Assembly: GCA_018645535.1 (NCBI GenBank)
Contig: JABGWN010000052.1
Span: 1 to 36,091 of the forward strand
DNA from: Methanobacteriota archaeon
GTDB lineage: Archaea > Thermoplasmatota > Poseidoniia > Poseidoniales > Poseidoniaceae
Direction of reading: 5' to 3'
DNA: 36,091 bases
The position numbers and the translations under genes were made by a program. The notes beneath the pieces are model-generated. The model was given only the letters and a program-made list of their open reading frames with translations, made no database searches and was not told the DNA's origin. Below are positions 25,867 through 33,820 of this stretch, one piece after another. Numbering within the stretch: the stretch's first letter is position 1; every line of letters starts with the position of its first letter.

Positions 25867-28683
25867 ATGGGATTAATGGAAAATTTTGGTAGAGTAGCTA
25901 CATCCTACATGGATGAGAAAGCAAAGCTCGAAGAAGCAGGCGAGAAGCGAACACGTACACGAATGGGTCACGGATTCTGGCCTCATGAAGTGCTGCGAGA
26001 TACAATTCTCTTTTCATTCATGGCAGCAGTTCTTCTGTTCTATGCGTGGTTGATTCCACCGCCACTTCACGGTGCTGCAGATCCATATGCGCAAGCAGGA
26101 TTCGTATTCCCTGATTGGTACGTTCTGTTCTCATACGGATACTTGCGTTGGGGAGAATATCTCCCTCAATTTACAGTCCCTACAGGATTCATTGGTGATA
26201 TTGTTGGCCAACCTGTATTTGCATGGAACGCTGCATGGTGGGGCGCTGCTCTAACTGGAATCCCTATTGGCATCCTCACACTCCCACCTCTAATTGGAGG
26301 ACGTGAAAAGAGACCTGTCGAAGACCCGTGGTTTGCCGCTGCAGGAGCAGTTTATTTGGCACACATTTGGTTTATCTCTGTATTCTCGATCAACATCTTC
26401 CTTGAACTGTACGGGAAAAACCGGTCTGATTATTGTAAACTGGATTCACATGGAGACTTACTGTGTGGTACAAGAGCGCCTTGGATGGCAGATATTTTCA
26501 ATGCAGTACCTTGGATTCTGACGGGTTTATTGTTGTGGATTGTGATTTACTTCATTGCCCGAAACGTGATGGTCAAGGCCTGGGGTTCTGGATTCACCCC
26601 TGCTCATGGAAAGCGCCTCATCGTCGGCGCACTGGTTATCTCTGCCGGAGCATCTGTTGCAACATTCGACACATACGACAACGGTTTCTGGGAAGCTGGC
26701 GGTCTTTTGACCATCAAAGGGCTAACGCACGATTATTATCCTGAACTGGAAGCAATGCGAACTCAACCAACTGATGTACACGTACACGAAATAAATGAGT
26801 TCACTGATGACCGGGGGTACTCCGATGATGGTATTGTGCCTGCCGCTGCATGGACAGACTGGCAAATCTACCAGCCAGCGCGAGAAGTGCTTATCGATTT
26901 CAGTGACGCAAATAATCACCAAGATGCGGAAGAAGGCCTCAATGCAGCTGGAACAACAGCATCCTTCTATGGTGGAGACGGATTCACAATGAGTGGAACA
27001 TTCACTGTAACAGAAGATACGAACAACTTCCCAGACGGACATCATGAATCTGTTGAATCACTTACAACGGACGTCGTTTGTGAATATCGATCGAGTGAGC
27101 GCAAAATCGATGGTGTCAATACTGCAACAATGCTCACCAGTTCGCTCAGCGTCACAGATGCGAAGGGGAAGGTCATGACCTCCTTCTCCGGATGTGTAGG
27201 GGATGAGATTACTCTTGAACCAGGTGTCTACGACTACGAATACAGTCTTCAAGCATCAGGAGCTCTTGCACAGAACAATTCGATCATGACCGAAACAACA
27301 TTCTCAATTCGTGCATATCAACCACTCCTTCTATGGAACAGCAATGCTGGCCCACTCGCTGGAACTGTTGTCAATCTCAGTGATACCGCTACAATAGCAG
27401 CATCCTCTGGAACATACAGCGATGTTGTCAACCCATCATACCACGTCAACCCGAAGGCACTCGATGCAAAACTCACGTATGCTATGTTCATTCCATGTTT
27501 GACATTTGGTGCAATCGTCGTCGTTGTCTTGAGATCAATGGCACGAGGATATGAATTCGAAATGAACAAGTGTTACGGTTGCGATTTGTGTGACGACGCT
27601 TGTCCAGTTCGATTGTTCAATGGTGGAGACAAACTCAACATCATTTACAATTCGTGGAACAATGAAGACGATGGTGTACCAATGTACTCCTGTCTGACGT
27701 GTACTGCCTGTACTAATGCATGCCCACAACTCGTCAACTATGACTCCTATGTTGATATTCGTAGAAGCCTCATCGTAGGCGGTCCGGCGGCTGAAATACC
27801 TCACACAGTGTTGCAAGCAGTCTTGGCTGCAGAAGCTGAAGAAGCATCAAACGAGGACTTCATCCCAGTAGAAGAGTACCCAATCACATCCAATGTTGGC
27901 TATTATCCAGGATGCGTTGACTATCTCGACCAAGAGATGGTCTTCTCCCACGTCAATGAAGGAGATATGAATCTTGGAGATTCGACAACTGCTGCCTTCA
28001 CTCTCTTCGAAGAAATGGGGCATGATGTATCGTACCTCGGCCGTGATTTCTTGAAGTGCTGTGGACACGATCAAAAGTGGCAAGGACTCACTGAAGTATT
28101 TGATAAACTCAAAGCCTACAATCAAAAGAAGATTGAAGCATCAGGCATTGATACACTCGTCTCATCATGTGCTGAATGTTTCCGAACCTTTGCTCGAGAT
28201 TACGAACTTGAAGGAGTCAAGGTCATGCACACAACAGAGTATCTCATCGAAAGCGGATTCGACATGGAACTCTCAACTGATGCTACAACAGTTACCTATC
28301 ACGACCCATGTCGACTTGGTCGTCAAATGGGAATCTATGATGAGCCTCGTGAACTGATCAACGCTGTAGAAGGTGTAGATCTCGTCGAGATGGAACACAG
28401 TGGAGAGGACGCTATGTGCTGTGGCGTCTCCAGTATGATGTCATGCAACGAAAATGCACGTGCTCTACGTGTGGCTCGTATGGAAGAAATCAAGTCCACT
28501 GGTGCTGACACCATGCTCACCTCATGCCCGAAGTGTGTTTCACACTTTGAGTGCTTGAAGTTTGAAGGTGATGAGCGATACGAAGACATTGAGATTCTCG
28601 ATGTTGTATCCTTCCTCGCACGAGAAGTTAACGCAAAGAAGAGCGAATTGACTCAACCTACACTCGGTGAAGTTGAAGCTTGA
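25867..28683 (+). CDS. Fusion: cytochrome b C-terminal half/subunit IV-like membrane domain + ~270-aa extracytoplasmic domain + HdrD/GlpC-type module (2x[4Fe-4S] ferredoxin motifs + 2 CCG domains)
   Basis: The FWPHEVLRD...PDWYVLFSYGYLRW (PEWY-type Qo motif) region has TM helices through residue ~265. Another TM helix is at ~536-555. Ferredoxin motifs are CYGCDLCDDACP and CLTCTACTNACP. The CCG domains are GC(683)...KCCGHD(731/732)...SCAEC(768/771) and PC(815)...MCCGVS(851/852)...SCPKC(887/890). It is a single 938-codon frame. GAGGTG lies 8 nt upstream of ATG 25867. Confidence 0.85.
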   Translation: MGLMENFGRVATSYMDEKAKLEEAGEKRTRTRMGHGFWPHEVLRDTILFSFMAAVLLFYAWLIPPPLHGAADPYAQAGFVFPDWYVLFSYGYLRWGEYLPQFTVPTGFIGDIVGQPVFAWNAAWWGAALTGIPIGILTLPPLIGGREKRPVEDPWFAAAGAVYLAHIWFISVFSINIFLELYGKNRSDYCKLDSHGDLLCGTRAPWMADIFNAVPWILTGLLLWIVIYFIARNVMVKAWGSGFTPAHGKRLIVGALVISAGASVATFDTYDNGFWEAGGLLTIKGLTHDYYPELEAMRTQPTDVHVHEINEFTDDRGYSDDGIVPAAAWTDWQIYQPAREVLIDFSDANNHQDAEEGLNAAGTTASFYGGDGFTMSGTFTVTEDTNNFPDGHHESVESLTTDVVCEYRSSERKIDGVNTATMLTSSLSVTDAKGKVMTSFSGCVGDEITLEPGVYDYEYSLQASGALAQNNSIMTETTFSIRAYQPLLLWNSNAGPLAGTVVNLSDTATIAASSGTYSDVVNPSYHVNPKALDAKLTYAMFIPCLTFGAIVVVVLRSMARGYEFEMNKCYGCDLCDDACPVRLFNGGDKLNIIYNSWNNEDDGVPMYSCLTCTACTNACPQLVNYDSYVDIRRSLIVGGPAAEIPHTVLQAVLAAEAEEASNEDFIPVEEYPITSNVGYYPGCVDYLDQEMVFSHVNEGDMNLGDSTTAAFTLFEEMGHDVSYLGRDFLKCCGHDQKWQGLTEVFDKLKAYNQKKIEASGIDTLVSSCAECFRTFARDYELEGVKVMHTTEYLIESGFDMELSTDATTVTYHDPCRLGRQMGIYDEPRELINAVEGVDLVEMEHSGEDAMCCGVSSMMSCNENARALRVARMEEIKSTGADTMLTSCPKCVSHFECLKFEGDERYEDIEILDVVSFLAREVNAKKSELTQPTLGEVEA

Positions 28684-28688
28684 AGCGT

Positions 28689-28979
28689 TTAATCTTCGGT
28701 TGGAGGAGTTCCTTCCTCATCCATCCCCACGATCTCATAGTTTGATGGGAAGAGCGCAATGATGACTCCAGCGATGAGACTGATCAATCCCCACATGAAC
28801 TCTTGTTGAACAAATAACAGTTCAAGAGCGATAACACAGAGAACAAGACCGCCGATGTTTGAAGTCCAAACAAGCGTCTTGAACGTGCCGAGCGATACAC
28901 CAGTTGTACCATCTTTCCGATATGGTCCAAACTCTCCACCGAAACGTTGTGCTGATGGTTCTTTTCCTTTCTTTGACAT
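28689..28979 (-). CDS. Hypothetical small 2-TM membrane protein
   Basis: 96-aa ORF, last in a tightly packed minus-strand gene string. TM helices are IGGLVLCVIALELLFV and GLISLIAGVIIALF. No family recognised. Confidence 0.4.
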   Translation of the reverse strand: MSKKGKEPSAQRFGGEFGPYRKDGTTGVSLGTFKTLVWTSNIGGLVLCVIALELLFVQQEFMWGLISLIAGVIIALFPSNYEIVGMDEEGTPPTED

Positions 28980-28989
28980 CGTTCATTCC

Positions 28990-29322
28990 TCATCGGTCTA
29001 TCATGGTGATTGCATCTGTTGGACAAGCGAGAACACATAGCCTGCATCCAGTGCAAGCATCTCTGATAATTTTCGCTTTCTGATTGCTTTCAACATTGAG
29101 TAAGGGGCTTCGCATGGCCATCTTGTACATCTCAATGGCATCATCATCACATACGATTGTGCATTGATCACAGCCGATACATAATGATTCTTGGACAAAA
29201 GCGACAGCAGTCTCACCTCCCTTGAGGGATGAATGCTGTACACCTCGCTGACGATTGAGGCTGGAGCGTATACGCTTCGCCTCTTCTTCGCGACGACGCT
29301 TAAGGTCATCCGAGGACGTCAT
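28990..29322 (-). CDS. 2x[4Fe-4S] dicluster ferredoxin with basic N-terminal extension
   Basis: CIGCDQCTIVCDDDAI and CTGCRLCVLACPTDAI are two CxxCxxCxxxC(P) motifs. The N-terminal ~40 aa are rich in R/K/E. ATG 29322 overlaps the upstream gene end by 17 nt. Confidence 0.8.
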   Translation of the reverse strand: MTSSDDLKRRREEEAKRIRSSLNRQRGVQHSSLKGGETAVAFVQESLCIGCDQCTIVCDDDAIEMYKMAMRSPLLNVESNQKAKIIRDACTGCRLCVLACPTDAITMIDR

Positions 29323-29965
29323 GTTCTACCTGACCAATGGGTTGGCCTTCAAACTTGGCAACGCTCAGATTTACAAGAAGATCTCCAAAGCAGTAGAATG
29401 CTCCAACCAATAATGGTGGATTCCAAGCAGTTAATCCGGTATATGGTACAGTAGAAGCCCAAGTCCAATTGCACAGGTAAGTCCCCCACAATTCCATTGC
29501 AAGAGCAAGCCAAACCATTGTAGCATAAAGTCGGGGCTCTGGACCCCATCGAATGAAACCAAAGGTGAGAATCAATAACAAGACCGCTGAGGTATCAGTT
29601 CCTTTTAGGGCCCCATACAGAACAAGCGGTAGAAGAGCGAGAATGAGATAAACTGGAGATGAGGAGGGAATCCTCTTGGCCACTCTACGTCCTAAATCAA
29701 ACAAGAAATAATGACCGACTGGAACAAAGAGGGGCATTAATCCTCTTTGATATTCATAAATTAACCATACCTCACTGAAGAACAATTCCATTGGCGTTGC
29801 AAATGCCAACACCGCAATCATTTCGATTCGTTCTTTACGATCTGTTATGATGAAAAGATACAGAAAAGTTCCAAGGCACCAGATATCAACAGGCCATTGA
29901 GCATACTTAGCTGAAACAAAGAGACCTACAGCGATGGTCGTGATGTAAAGCAGTTCACGACGCAT
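29306..29965 (-). CDS. Hypothetical polytopic membrane protein (~6-7 TM)
   Basis: 219-aa hydrophobic ORF between the GshA-like and ferredoxin genes. No family recognised. Confidence 0.45.
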   Translation of the reverse strand: MRRELLYITTIAVGLFVSAKYAQWPVDIWCLGTFLYLFIITDRKERIEMIAVLAFATPMELFFSEVWLIYEYQRGLMPLFVPVGHYFLFDLGRRVAKRIPSSSPVYLILALLPLVLYGALKGTDTSAVLLLILTFGFIRWGPEPRLYATMVWLALAMELWGTYLCNWTWASTVPYTGLTAWNPPLLVGAFYCFGDLLVNLSVAKFEGQPIGQVEHDVLG

Positions 29966-29996
29966 GGTTTTGCTACAGGCATCTCCTTTATGAGAA

Positions 29997-31199
29997 TCAT
30001 GACGTTTTCATCGCTTCTAATTCAAGTCCCATAGCGAGCATTGAGATTTCAGCAACCAAGGCGTGCCAATTATGTGCATGAGTCATATATCCAGGCTCTT
30101 GATCAGAAGTGACAAATTGTGCGCTCGGAGAATTAAGATTACCAATGTCATCTCGTTTTGCATTAACTCTGTAAAACCAGGAGGAAGCATCACCATCGAC
30201 GAGATAGACCACTGGCTCTACTGGAAATCCTTCTTCTGTTTTCATAAGAGTCGGAACGCCTTCTTGTATCAAGAAATCTTCAACATCCGTGGTTCCTTTC
30301 CCATACATTAGTTTCTTCATCTTGCGGTTCGATAGATTGAGAAGTTGCTCACCTGAAGTCACAGTCATAATGCCTAAGCCATAAGTTCCACGATTATTTT
30401 TGACATACACAACGGGCTCTCTGTCAAGACCAAGTGATTGATACCGCTTTGAAAGAAGGGCGATAAAATCATCAACCTCTTTTGCTAATTTTACTCGACA
30501 GGCTTCTTTTTCCAAACATTTATTCTCAGAGACGAATGAATCACAAAGTAAGTGCCATGGTTCTATTCCAATTATTTCGCTTACTTCTTCAACAAGGGGA
30601 CGGAGGTGTTCAAAATGCATGGATTTCTTTCTCTTGTGCCAACCCATTTGTGGATTTGGCAAGATATGGGGGGATGAAAGGCCCTGCAAACCTTCGTCAG
30701 TTAGATCGTTGTTGAGCAGAATAAAGTCTGGTTGTTCTCCGTTTACCAGAAGAACATCGTTGATAATCTCGACTTGATTCAATGGAAGGGGACCAAGAAG
30801 TCCATTGAGTGTTTCGAACCCATCAAGTTCGGGATTACCGACTGTACATCGGTATCCTGCCGATTCAACCAATTTACACAACGTTCGAAGATTCTCAACA
30901 TATCCTTGATTTCTCGTATGAGATTCGGGATAGATATGAACCCATTTGCAATTGGGATTATTTCGTTTAATGTGTTCTGAAATACGATTTGTGAGATGAG
31001 GTAAATCCGAGTCCGAGGTATTGTTGAAACCAGCAGGGAATTGATTCGCATCGACAACAGCTATTTTCCATCCAGCATCTCTGACATCTACACTTCCGTA
31101 AATTGGGACCTCTATTGACGAACGCTTTTCATTCATCCATTTCGTCAATTCATCACGCTTTTCTTCTAGTCGATTGCTTAGTTCGTGTAGGAATGTCAT
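29997..31199 (-). CDS. GshA-type (Acidithiobacillus-type, PF08886-like) glutamate--cysteine ligase candidate
   Basis: These blocks resemble my recollection of the rare proteobacterial GshA family: PIYGSVDVRDAGWKIAVVDANQFPAGFNN, YPESHTRNQGYVENL, LLNNDLT, GWHKRKKSMHF, RGTYGLGIMTVTSGE...LSNRKMKKL, IQEGVPT, EPVVYLVDG...FYRV....D.GNLNSP. It is not verified by search. Confidence 0.5.
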   Translation of the reverse strand: MTFLHELSNRLEEKRDELTKWMNEKRSSIEVPIYGSVDVRDAGWKIAVVDANQFPAGFNNTSDSDLPHLTNRISEHIKRNNPNCKWVHIYPESHTRNQGYVENLRTLCKLVESAGYRCTVGNPELDGFETLNGLLGPLPLNQVEIINDVLLVNGEQPDFILLNNDLTDEGLQGLSSPHILPNPQMGWHKRKKSMHFEHLRPLVEEVSEIIGIEPWHLLCDSFVSENKCLEKEACRVKLAKEVDDFIALLSKRYQSLGLDREPVVYVKNNRGTYGLGIMTVTSGEQLLNLSNRKMKKLMYGKGTTDVEDFLIQEGVPTLMKTEEGFPVEPVVYLVDGDASSWFYRVNAKRDDIGNLNSPSAQFVTSDQEPGYMTHAHNWHALVAEISMLAMGLELEAMKTS

Positions 31200-32974
31200 T
31201 AGATCACCTCATTCAATAAATCATCAAGAGTTCGGTTCTGCAAGTTAAGCCCATGTCCTTGCAAGTGGATGGATTCAAACAATCCAAGCCCTAAGGCAAT
31301 TTCTGGTTGTTTGTGTAGAACCTTTTCACACATAGTCCATTTTGACGCAATCTCTTGTATTTGAGATGCATATTCGTCAAGACAAGAAGTAAGCAGTGTG
31401 GGCGATGTAGCAGTTCCAGCAGGCAACTTCTTTCGATAAACAACAGATTCAGGGAGGTTTGTCAACGCTGCAGCTGAACGTAAAGCCTTCTTTTCCAGAC
31501 CCGTCGATGGAAGTCGTTGGTCCATTGGAAGTTGCATTGCCTCTTGCCGATGTGCACGGGAAAGGAAAGGAACTCGAACTTCAAGTGAATGAGCCATAGA
31601 GTGGCGATCTACAAGACGAAGTTGAAAATTACTGAGTTGACCATGATCCATCTCGAATTGTAATGTCTTTTGCAGCGTACTCAAGTGCGTTGAAGGGCGA
31701 TGGTCTTGGGTCCACCAACGTGAATCCTCTGACATCGATTCGGTTTGAAGAGTTGCAGCAAAGGGGTGATCTAGATCAGACATGCGTGCTTCAAGTTGTT
31801 GTTGATGATTTTTCAAATCGACATATCGGGGGTATCCAGCATGTATCTCGTCTGCTCCTTGACCGCATAACCCAACTCGAACAACCTTCGACATTTCCTG
31901 AAACAATGGTTGGAAGAATAATACTGAGACGTCTAAGTCCTCACCATGCCAAGAGAGAGAAGGCAAATGACGCGAGAATGAATCAGAATCCATGATGGAT
32001 TGATGATGTTCTAAATCCAATGCAGATGCTACGAGTTCAGCTGCCATCCAATCAGGATTATCTTCGCTTTCTGCCACAGTCCAGCAAGCGGGAGTTGGAC
32101 GACCATACCTCTTAGCAGCATCACTCGCAACGGCAGCGACCAAGGAGGAATCAAGTCCACCTGAGAGAACAATACCCACTGGTACGTCAGACATCAATCG
32201 TTGACCAACACTCTCAATAAATCCATCGAGAAGAAGGCTTGAACCTTGGTTCACATCCCATGATTCCGTGGGATTAAACATGGGGCTGGAGAATCGAGCA
32301 TGACTTTCTAATGTTGCAATACCATCATTCACAGTCCAAACTTCAACAGTTCCTGGTCGAACTTGATGTACACCCTGAAACAATGATGTTGCATCAAGAG
32401 GGTATTCCCAAACAAGTCGGGCAAGGAGAGCCTCCATGTCCATTTTAGGACTGTATTGCGAATGTGCATGGAAAGCTTTGGCTTCACTTGCAAAGAGTAG
32501 CGAACGGTCAATGGTTGTTCTCAAGAGAGGTTTAATGCCCATTTCATCACGAGCAAGAATCAATTGTTTATTCACAGGATCCCAAAGACTCAATGCGAAC
32601 ATTCCATCAAGTCGTTTCAACCACTTGCAATGGTCCTCAGCGTCTGGATGTTTTATTCCGTGTGTTGCACTTTTATGCAGTGCAAGAATTGTTTCACTAT
32701 CACCCATGGTCTTCCAAGGATAGGTCTCATTACTCTGTCTAAGGTTCTGATAGTTGTAGATTTCACCATTGACAATGAGAATGCAACCATGATTAGAAGA
32801 GATGGGTTGAGGACTTCCCTCCAAATCGACAATTGCGAGTCGTGAATGCCCGAGAGAGATGTGTTCATCATCCCAGAACCCAGTGCCATCTGGCCCTCGA
32901 TGATGTTGAAGTCGTGTCATACTTTTGACAACAGAAGGTTCTGGCGAACCAAACATGCCAGAAATCCCACACAT
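31199..32974 (-). CDS. Asparagine synthase-like glutamine amidotransferase (AsnB family)
   Basis: There is an N-terminal Ntn nucleophile (MCGISGMFG), then RGPDG, IVNGEIYN, and the PP-loop VGIVLSGGLDSSLVAAV in the synthetase domain. Its stop overlaps the downstream start by 1 nt (31199). Confidence 0.85.
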   Translation of the reverse strand: MCGISGMFGSPEPSVVKSMTRLQHHRGPDGTGFWDDEHISLGHSRLAIVDLEGSPQPISSNHGCILIVNGEIYNYQNLRQSNETYPWKTMGDSETILALHKSATHGIKHPDAEDHCKWLKRLDGMFALSLWDPVNKQLILARDEMGIKPLLRTTIDRSLLFASEAKAFHAHSQYSPKMDMEALLARLVWEYPLDATSLFQGVHQVRPGTVEVWTVNDGIATLESHARFSSPMFNPTESWDVNQGSSLLLDGFIESVGQRLMSDVPVGIVLSGGLDSSLVAAVASDAAKRYGRPTPACWTVAESEDNPDWMAAELVASALDLEHHQSIMDSDSFSRHLPSLSWHGEDLDVSVLFFQPLFQEMSKVVRVGLCGQGADEIHAGYPRYVDLKNHQQQLEARMSDLDHPFAATLQTESMSEDSRWWTQDHRPSTHLSTLQKTLQFEMDHGQLSNFQLRLVDRHSMAHSLEVRVPFLSRAHRQEAMQLPMDQRLPSTGLEKKALRSAAALTNLPESVVYRKKLPAGTATSPTLLTSCLDEYASQIQEIASKWTMCEKVLHKQPEIALGLGLFESIHLQGHGLNLQNRTLDDLLNEVI

Positions 32975-32985
32975 ATCTCACAGGA

Positions 32986-33006
32986 AACGTCCATGACGTT
33001 TATACC
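32986..33006 (-). promoter_or_regulatory. Candidate leaderless archaeal promoter (TATAAA at -30..-25 from the asnB-like ATG) overlapping a perfect palindrome AACGTC-ATG-GACGTT (-26..-12)
   Basis: The minus strand reads GGTATAAACGTCATGGACGTTTCCTGTGAGAT-ATG. A TATA centred about 27 nt upstream of the start codon matches archaeal TATA-to-TSS spacing. The 6+3+6 palindrome lies between the TATA and the start. Confidence 0.4.
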
Positions 33007-33196: not shown

Positions 33197-33820
33197 TCAC
33201 ATAACTCCCAAAAATGGTTCGAGAACTAAGACCAAGGCCAATGGAATGAGCAACATAGTAGCGTTGTCATCGATATATCGTAAACGAGGCCATTCTGCAG
33301 CAACACACATTGGTCCCATCAATGCTACAAGAAGCCATGGAGTCCCAACCCATATTGCACAGCAAGCCCAAATTGTGGCAATACCAAGTGTTCCTGCCCA
33401 AATAACTGCAGAAACTGAGAAGTCCTTTCTTCGCATCTCACCGAGGAGTGGATCTCCGAGTGAGAGACTCAAAATGAGTGGATATGCATACGCCTTTTCG
33501 GGTGTCAAAAGCAAGACCATACCGATGGCAATAGCGCCCCATGCTAAGGCAGATACTTGCTTTGCCTCATAGGCACGTTGACCGATTATAGTGACGCCGA
33601 ATTTGAGTCGAAGAGCCTCTCCTACGATGGCAACGAGAATAACAACAGAAACAAGTCGAGCCAGTGAAAGATTTACAGCATCTGCAGTACGTTCTCCATA
33701 TTCAAAATACAGAACTGGAATAAAGGACATTCCGAGGTGTATTCCTCTACGAAGCAGGTGTCCTGACATGCCACCAACCGATTGATCAACAGGGTTCGTC
33801 ATCTCAACTTGGTCACTCAT
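33197..33820 (-). CDS. Polyprenol (dolichol/phytol) kinase / CTP-transferase-1 superfamily-like membrane protein (divergent)
   Basis: The pattern RRGIHL..., E.LR, SLSLGDPLLGEM and YIDDNATMLLIPLA resembles COG0170/SEC59-type proteins (RK.iH, lgD..A..vG, DNl.iPl). The usual G.GK/KS.EGS block is not evident. ATG 33820 overlaps the meaB stop by 8 nt. Confidence 0.4.
   Translation of the reverse strand: MSDQVEMTNPVDQSVGGMSGHLLRRGIHLGMSFIPVLYFEYGERTADAVNLSLARLVSVVILVAIVGEALRLKFGVTIIGQRAYEAKQVSALAWGAIAIGMVLLLTPEKAYAYPLILSLSLGDPLLGEMRRKDFSVSAVIWAGTLGIATIWACCAIWVGTPWLLVALMGPMCVAAEWPRLRYIDDNATMLLIPLALVLVLEPFLGVM

Follow-up and report, generated by a model that had tools for sequence, protein, structure and literature searches.

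What does an archaeon of Marine Group II (MGII) make with a gene for an asparagine-synthetase-like amidotransferase (AsnB-like) that runs directly into a gene for a GshA-type ligase? This question is raised by a contig of 36,091 nucleotides (nt) from a Poseidoniaceae genome (GCA_018645535.1, contig JABGWN010000052.1, C171 in our genome set), which was analysed over its whole length and is referred to as the window. The source genome comprises 1.74 Mb at 76% completeness, and the window proteins are 90–95% identical to those of Candidatus Poseidoniaceae/Poseidoniales metagenome-assembled genomes (MAGs), i.e. of Marine Group IIa (MGIIa). A sequence-only reading of the window had proposed that five tightly packed minus-strand genes, starting with this pair, form one operon for a low-molecular-weight and possibly amidated thiol, whose disulfide could serve as substrate of the module encoded by a neighbouring HdrD-fusion gene. 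The coordinates of the five open reading frames (ORFs), including all overlaps and gaps, were reproduced exactly, and the domain calls (AsnB-like, GshA, dicluster ferredoxin) were confirmed by Pfam/NCBIfam matches. Of the interpretation itself, the GshA family, the absence of gshB and the pairing of AsnB with GshA stood, and the five-gene operon and the HdrD link did not. Our preferred reading, to which we assign a probability of about 0.4, is that the AsnB-GshA cassette would act as one unit making a gamma-glutamyl-cysteine (gamma-Glu-Cys)-type thiol, possibly amidated.

The GshA-type ATP-grasp ligase (positions 29997–31199, minus strand, 400 aa) belongs to the GshA family, as had been supposed: it matches PF08886 with 308 bits (cut-off 25) over residues 10–364. 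A profile built from the Poseidoniales homologues matches one solved structure, 3k1t (E = 1.2e-72), which was deposited by structural genomics as a "putative gamma-glutamylcysteine synthetase" of Methylobacillus flagellatus, and the AlphaFold (AF2) model of the 400-aa protein (predicted local distance difference test, pLDDT, 80.5) is superimposed on it by Foldseek with a template modelling (TM) score of 0.87. Further Foldseek matches were glutathionylspermidine synthetase, E. coli YjfC/YgiC, the eukaryotic glutathione and homoglutathione synthetases, trypanothione synthetase and RimK, and consequently PF08886 can be regarded as a family of ATP-grasp carboxylate-amine ligases that is structurally closest to the enzymes of glutathione-type peptides. 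Judged from the model, the PF08886 GshA is not related to the classical glutamate-cysteine ligase of glutamine-synthetase fold. Aligned with 149 non-Poseidoniales homologues, the 400-aa protein retains 41 of 44 positions with a conservation of at least 90%; N290S and G359S are two clade-wide Poseidoniales departures from family-conserved sites. The protein looks like an intact enzyme of PF08886 chemistry, with glutamate and cysteine as presumed substrates by family membership only. It thus shares with the GshA of the Acidithiobacillus ferrooxidans type (PF08886/TIGR02049) the Pfam family, the fold, the conserved residues and the ATP-grasp acyl-phosphate chemistry, and differs from it by a score under the equivalog cut-off, by the lack of a gshB partner and by its operon with an AsnB-like gene.

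A genome-wide look for gshB, which had been named as a check on the pathway, returned no gene above the TIGR01380 cut-off in any of 30 Poseidoniales genomes; the sole ATP-grasp matches to this model were RimK-like proteins with 47–87 bits, which occur irrespective of GshA. Without GshB, the gamma-Glu-Cys-type dipeptide would be either the end thiol or the precursor of it. Ligases of the GCS2 type were likewise found in 0 of 39 genomes, and the idea that GCS2 replaces GshA in GshA-negative genomes was dropped, GCS2 being the only alternative family that was searched. By these searches, PF08886 is the only candidate gamma-Glu-Cys ligase.

The partner of this ligase (31199–32974, minus strand, 591 aa) carries a GATase_7 and an Asn_synthase domain (162.9 bits, Pfam), and its description as an intact AsnB-type enzyme proved correct. 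The glutaminase site is complete, with the Cys1 nucleophile (MCG start, Met removed), the NGEIYN motif and the conserved Asp; the SGGLDSS PP-loop, the catalytic Lys (human Lys-466; the K in YRKKLP) and the equivalents of human Asp-367 and Glu-368 are conserved as well. These features and the domain architecture are common to E. coli AsnB and human asparagine synthetase (ASNS; 1ct9, 6gq3). Nevertheless, the enzyme reaches neither the AsnB-proper equivalog NF006949 (257.3 against 499 bits) nor the AsnO equivalog TIGR03104 (233.8 against 570.1 bits), and its best match in the PDB is the hydroxyamidotransferase 7ylz, marginally above ASNS and AsnB. Furthermore, alignment to 6gq3 unveiled two changes in the synthetase pocket: Gln stands at human Glu-364 (E. 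coli Glu-348), where the motif reads CGQGADE against SGEGSDE in the human enzyme, and Gln also stands at human Asp-400 (motif NFQLRLVDR). In human ASNS these residues are placed around the aspartate moiety, and its variants E364A, E364Q and D367A are reported to be inactive (PMC6748925). Both motifs, C-G-Q-G-[AS]-D-E and N-F-Q-L-R, are invariant in all cassette-linked AsnBs examined, in Poseidoniales as well as in the distant families f29 and f48. Work on Glu-348 of E. coli AsnB reportedly came to the same conclusion as for human Glu-364. As far as the alignment tells, the pocket is atypical for an aspartate-specific enzyme.

The two genes meet in a TAATG junction with a 1-nt overlap at position 31199, through which translation of GshA is predicted to be coupled to that of AsnB. 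A TATAAA box is located at about −30 from the AsnB ATG, within a putative cassette promoter region (32975–33006, minus strand). Since an A/T-rich box (TTGAWA/TATAWA type) was found at equal distance upstream of AsnB in 30 of 30 related loci, the arrangement is consistent with leaderless transcripts, and the AsnB-GshA transcript probably starts at its own promoter and is leaderless. A palindrome (AACGTC-ATG-GACGTT) stands ahead of the AsnB start, downstream of the TATA box; it is common only to the nearest relative (L032) and was for this reason rejected as a conserved operator.

In order to judge the pairing, 20 GshA-positive loci from three families of Poseidoniales (f1, which is Poseidoniaceae, f2 and f3) and 15 genera were compared. 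AsnB and GshA are adjacent and in the same order in all of them, overlapping by 0–4 nt or separated by no more than 17 nt. For the order itself this says little, because the whole 15-kb region is syntenic: the genes for a B12-binding subunit, MeaB, a 207-aa membrane protein, AsnB and GshA are co-linear in 20 of 20 loci, and a Rieske/cytochrome b operon ending in the HdrD fusion is found near the cassette in each. The 207-aa multi-pass membrane protein (33197–33820), which lies between MeaB and AsnB throughout the order and overlaps the end of MeaB by 8 nt, has no family match.

A comparison with genomes outside Poseidoniales tells more. In a phylum-wide scan, PF08886 was found there only in eight high-GC genomes, which belong to the families f29 and f48. 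Seven of them have GshA directly behind an AsnB orthologue, and the two genes often overlap by 4 nt. Two additional metagenomic loci show the same order, so that the pair is present in 9 of 10 distant high-GC Thermoplasmatota loci. The f29/f48 proteins are only 31–35% (GshA) and 37–39% (AsnB) identical to those of Poseidoniales, and no other neighbour is common. The co-occurrence of the pair in relatives, on which the sequence-only reading had depended, therefore extends beyond local synteny, and the tight packing of the two genes, repeated in the 20 Poseidoniales and the 9 distant loci, is not due to chance. In a FastTree phylogeny of 167 family members, the Poseidoniales GshA clade is supported by an SH-like value of 98, and together with the f29/f48 sequences it forms one group (SH-like 90) with one long-branch intruder. 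The contrast is sharpest in genus g60: three of its genomes hold both genes, and three hold neither a full-length AsnB nor a GshA.

Moreover, the cassettes of g60 and of a more divergent MAG begin with a gene for a thioredoxin-fold protein of 76–78 aa (GST_N_3), which abuts or overlaps the AsnB start. The protein has a weak glutaredoxin-like NCBIfam match and the active site CHEC in one lineage and CFES in the other; the first Cys is retained and the second is not. In monothiol glutaredoxin mechanisms the first Cys is required and the second dispensable.

Two side results of the scan concern individual loci and the search pattern. The sole f29 genome with GshA apart from AsnB (L155, G320:C35, 7860–12044) carries AsnB on another contig (L171), and in L155 a CCG-domain (HdrD/GlpC-like) gene lies 2 kb from GshA. 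The DNA pattern for CGQG[AS]DE, tried as a phylum-wide marker of the AsnB clade, turned out to be partly misleading: it misses Ser variants encoded by AGY, and its matches in Marine Group III (MGIII) belong to a stand-alone Asn_synthase/PP-loop protein of about 310 aa with CGQGADE, without a glutaminase domain and with a Pcc1-like C-terminus. This protein (L164 5745–6674 in G314; G014:C1:161908; G024:C12:23751) is embedded in a conserved gene string and occurs in 8 of 8 MGIII genomes sampled, all of which are without full-length AsnB or GshA.

Several observations weigh against a dedicated thiol unit. On the side of the ligase, the window protein stays below the equivalog cut-off of TIGR02049 (272.8 against 293.9 bits), as do the other Poseidoniales GshA proteins (248–252 bits), and PF08886 is found in unrelated contexts, a natural-product cluster included: the bacterial genes sampled lie beside CstA, beside an SSF transporter or within a radical-SAM/MbtH cluster, and none of them has an AsnB-like operon partner. 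Glutaredoxin (PF00462) is present in 34 of 34 genomes, glutathione peroxidase (PF00255) is patchy, and neither tracks GshA; being ubiquitous and patchy, respectively, they were discarded as uninformative co-occurrence evidence. On the side of the amidotransferase, the score exceeds the cut-off of TIGR01536 (343.6 against 267.1 bits), the gene is the sole PF00733 gene of the window genome, and an asparaginyl-tRNA synthetase (AsnRS) exceeding its equivalog cut-off is encoded in all 30 genomes searched, which makes the role of a plain asparagine synthetase plausible. In addition, an unrelated 687-aa AsnB paralogue of genome G277 (DGQGADE) has Gln at the Glu-364 position, too; this Gln is thus neither diagnostic of nor unique to the cassette clade and was rejected as a mark of it.

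The distribution of the two genes within Poseidoniales points in the same direction. At least 23 Poseidoniales genomes keep AsnB without GshA, and in all ten GshA-negative loci inspected the AsnB orthologue stands at the same syntenic place with intact catalytic motifs. The GshA-negative genera form one clade of Marine Group IIb (MGIIb) in which one GshA-positive genome (G081) is nested, so that GshA was lost one to five times and AsnB was spared each time. Evidently, AsnB has a role for which GshA is not required, and it is not dedicated to the GshA product. The sequence-only reading had conceded that it would fail if the AsnB-like gene were the organism's only asparagine synthetase with an ordinary context elsewhere, and this holds in part: no other PF00733 gene exists in the genome, and the gene has stayed at its locus after GshA loss.

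These data give substance to an ordinary explanation, according to which the two enzymes work independently behind a shared promoter: an asparagine synthetase with an unusual pocket, and a GshA making gamma-Glu-Cys as the final thiol in the manner of haloarchaea, with an adjacency that was simply inherited. The sole Asn_synthase gene, the universal AsnRS, the TIGR01536 score, the conserved glutaminase residues, PP-loop and Asp-367/Glu-368/Lys-466 equivalents all fit this explanation, and so does the fate of AsnB after GshA loss, for no general relaxation was seen: in GshA-negative lineages 15 of 120 invariant columns are changed, compared with 10 of 115 and 16 of 121 in the controls. What it accounts for less well is that adjacency and translational coupling have outlasted class-level divergence while all other neighbours changed, that both genes are present or absent together in g60, that a glutaredoxin-like gene shares the operon, and that Gln replaces a Glu needed in human ASNS (PMC6748925). 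Furthermore, the genera g11 and g12 possess AsnRS yet no AsnB, and three g60 genomes are also without AsnB, which indicates that an own asparagine synthase is dispensable in these peptide-consuming archaea. We regard independent enzymes as the main rival of the preferred reading, and as only slightly less probable.

A single site of AsnB was found to follow the presence of GshA. All 23 AsnBs of GshA-positive Poseidoniales have Pro382 (about 31829–31831, directly following GQGADEIHAGY), and 9 of 10 AsnBs of their GshA-negative counterparts have S, T, E or D in its place, the residue varying even within a genus. The site behaves as if it were sensing GshA; we give this pattern low weight, as one position is involved and the genomes in question are almost monophyletic. 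A similar behaviour is shown by Pro356 in 6 of 10 GshA-negative genomes.

In the GshA-negative MGIIb loci (L052–L061) no GshA remnants were detectable in the empty slot; between AsnB and the gene of the small membrane protein, for example at L053 9210–9783, the slot holds an ORF resembling O6-methylguanine-DNA methyltransferase (TEFQIKVW...PxGxxxxY region). A further GshA copy of the GshA-positive G081 is located on a contig of 4.3 kb (L051, G081:C24, 1417–3823) and has no AsnB before it; duplication, variation between strains or faulty binning could account for it. This copy lies near a divergently oriented CPYC glutaredoxin, with one gene for a 218-aa HFX_2341-like/HTH regulator in between, and this vicinity may lend weak support to a thiol context.

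If the two enzymes do act together, the product need not contain sulfur. The cassette could join glutamate to an amino acid other than cysteine and amidate the dipeptide to a compatible solute comparable to N-acetylglutaminylglutamine amide (NAGGN). The gene logic is indeed that of asnO-ngg in Sinorhizobium and Pseudomonas, where an AsnB-family amidotransferase is followed by an ATP-grasp dipeptide ligase whose product is amidated; the hosts are marine, a match to TIGR03104 exists (233.8 bits), and with respect to the low TIGR02049 scores and the clade-specific N290S and G359S the Poseidoniales ligase might have changed its substrate. Against this stand the distance of the amidotransferase from the AsnO cut-off, the missing GNAT domain and a ligase of a different ATP-grasp family (PF08886 only). 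The f29 GshA homologues, which are paired with the same AsnB clade, exceed the TIGR02049 cut-off with 302 and 422 bits, and the cassette of soil Thermoplasmatota includes a thioredoxin-fold CxxC/CxxS gene, a context that speaks for a thiol and not for an osmolyte. A non-thiol dipeptide amide is accordingly judged improbable.

In the preferred reading, which makes the cassette one thiol unit, the AsnB-like and GshA-type genes would be transcribed as a bicistronic unit. The ligase, as suggested by its fold and family, would activate the gamma-carboxylate of glutamate as acyl-phosphate and join it to cysteine. The AsnB-like enzyme would hydrolyse glutamine at Cys1 and channel the ammonia to a carboxylate adenylated at the PP-loop site; linkage, co-presence and co-absence with GshA and the altered pocket suggest that this may be a free carboxylate of the gamma-Glu-Cys-type dipeptide. 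An amidated low-molecular-weight thiol usable by glutaredoxin-like proteins would result. A second, GshA-independent substrate of the AsnB-like enzyme, possibly aspartate, would explain why the gene is retained without GshA. The more far-reaching version, in which the AsnB with the Glu-to-Gln change is a gamma-Glu-Cys amidotransferase and the cassette makes a new amidated thiol serving as the main redox buffer of MGII and some soil Thermoplasmatota, with a glutaredoxin-like partner in some lineages, strikes us as doubtful.

Both halves of such a pathway have precedents. Gamma-Glu-Cys is the end thiol in Halobacteria, and glutathione amide is found in purple sulfur bacteria. The haloarchaea likewise have a gamma-Glu-Cys ligase without GshB; theirs is of the GCS2 type, which was missing from the 39 genomes searched here. 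The glutathione amide of Chromatiaceae is an amidated glutathione-type thiol like the proposed product, and to our knowledge no amidating enzyme has been assigned to it.

The three remaining genes of the supposed operon have a different history. A multi-pass membrane protein of 219 aa (mem219, 29306–29965) follows GshA after a 31-nt gap and overlaps by 17 nt (29306–29322) with a 2x[4Fe-4S] dicluster ferredoxin (28990–29322, 110 aa; Fer4_21 and Fer4 matches), which is separated by 10 nt from a small membrane protein with two predicted transmembrane helices (28689–28979, 96 aa), all on the minus strand. On the plus strand, a cytochrome b subunit-IV/HdrD fusion with two CCG domains and a Fer4 domain (25867–28683, 938 aa), a neighbour and not a member of the cassette, converges on the small membrane gene with a 5-nt gap and is the final gene of the Rieske/cytochrome b operon. 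The ferredoxin has a basic N-terminal extension and two CxxCxxCxxxC motifs, CIGCDQCTIVC and CTGCRLCVLACP, and exceeds the Fer4_21 cut-off (52.7 against 35 bits). Neither mem219 nor the 96-aa protein has a Pfam or NCBIfam match; all homologues of mem219 are uncharacterised proteins of MGIIa (Poseidoniaceae), and mem219 is absent from the loci of f2, f3 and genus g7. In two genera (L037, L038) it lies about 1 kb from GshA, and a TATA-like box is found at about −28 upstream of mem219 in all f1 loci.

The ferredoxin and the 96-aa gene lie as a pair between GshA and the HdrD fusion in all 20 loci, on varying strands. In f1 the pair is on the strand of GshA, behind mem219; in f2 and f3 it is on the strand of the HdrD fusion, with the ferredoxin 14–400 nt downstream of the fusion, and convergent with GshA (inversion comparison of window positions 28689–29322 with L043 7998–8631 and L032 7703–8333). 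Of 40 loci inspected, 39 have the 96-aa gene and the ferredoxin in co-linear arrangement, whichever way the pair is oriented. Because the strand of the pair varies and TATA-like boxes precede both AsnB and mem219, the five genes most likely represent two units, namely AsnB-GshA and mem219-ferredoxin-small protein. We infer that the mem219-ferredoxin-small protein unit belongs functionally with the Rieske/cytochrome b-HdrD complex and came to share the orientation of the cassette through an inversion in Poseidoniaceae; given the inversion pattern, the HdrD arm of complex III may have the ferredoxin as its redox partner. As side observations, the ferredoxin/small-protein pair is split by a GT4 glycosyltransferase gene in one MGIIb lineage (L144–L146, 8591–9826), and two f2-like loci (L148 8838–12842, L149 8829–12863) encode subunit IV-HdrD fusions of 1334–1344 aa instead of about 940 aa, the length of which suggests an extracytoplasmic insert that is about 400 residues longer.

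These findings bear on the proposal that all five genes serve one pathway, with the ferredoxin and the membrane proteins acting on the thiol and the convergent HdrD reducing its disulfide. HdrD-type CCG domains reduce heterodisulfides in methanogens, the spacing in the window is tight, and the CCG-domain gene of L155 lies close to a GshA. The one-operon claim was nevertheless rejected, since the ferredoxin/small-protein pair changes strand between families, is co-directional with the HdrD fusion in f2 and f3 and merely inverted in f1, and since mem219 is confined to one family. HdrD fusion, ferredoxin and small protein are all present in 10 of 10 GshA-negative loci inspected and absent from the f29/f48 cassettes; consequently the fusion does not depend on the GshA product, and its role as reductase of that product was discarded as well, the fusion being part of the Rieske/cytochrome b operon. 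A five-gene pathway is thereby largely refuted and, in our view, very improbable. Whatever probability the four readings leave falls to something else.

The central biochemical claim, the amidated thiol, is a proposal with a serious ordinary alternative. If the enzymes are independent, MGII probably uses gamma-Glu-Cys as haloarchaea do, made by a different ligase family, which would be a useful if modest result. If the dipeptide is amidated, the thiol would be new, and so would the specificity within the asparagine-synthetase family; the AsnB-like protein would be the first enzyme to which the amidation of such a glutathione-type compound is assigned. In that case, the ligase losses scattered over the streamlined MGIIb genera would point to ecologically distinct modes of redox physiology. 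A full-text literature search returned no paper mentioning PF08886 and none discussing glutathione synthesis in MGII. In the sunlit ocean, MGII archaea rank with the most abundant microbes; they are uncultured and live under strong oxidative stress, and for them the cassette is the only candidate locus of thiol synthesis, and one that is open to experimental test.

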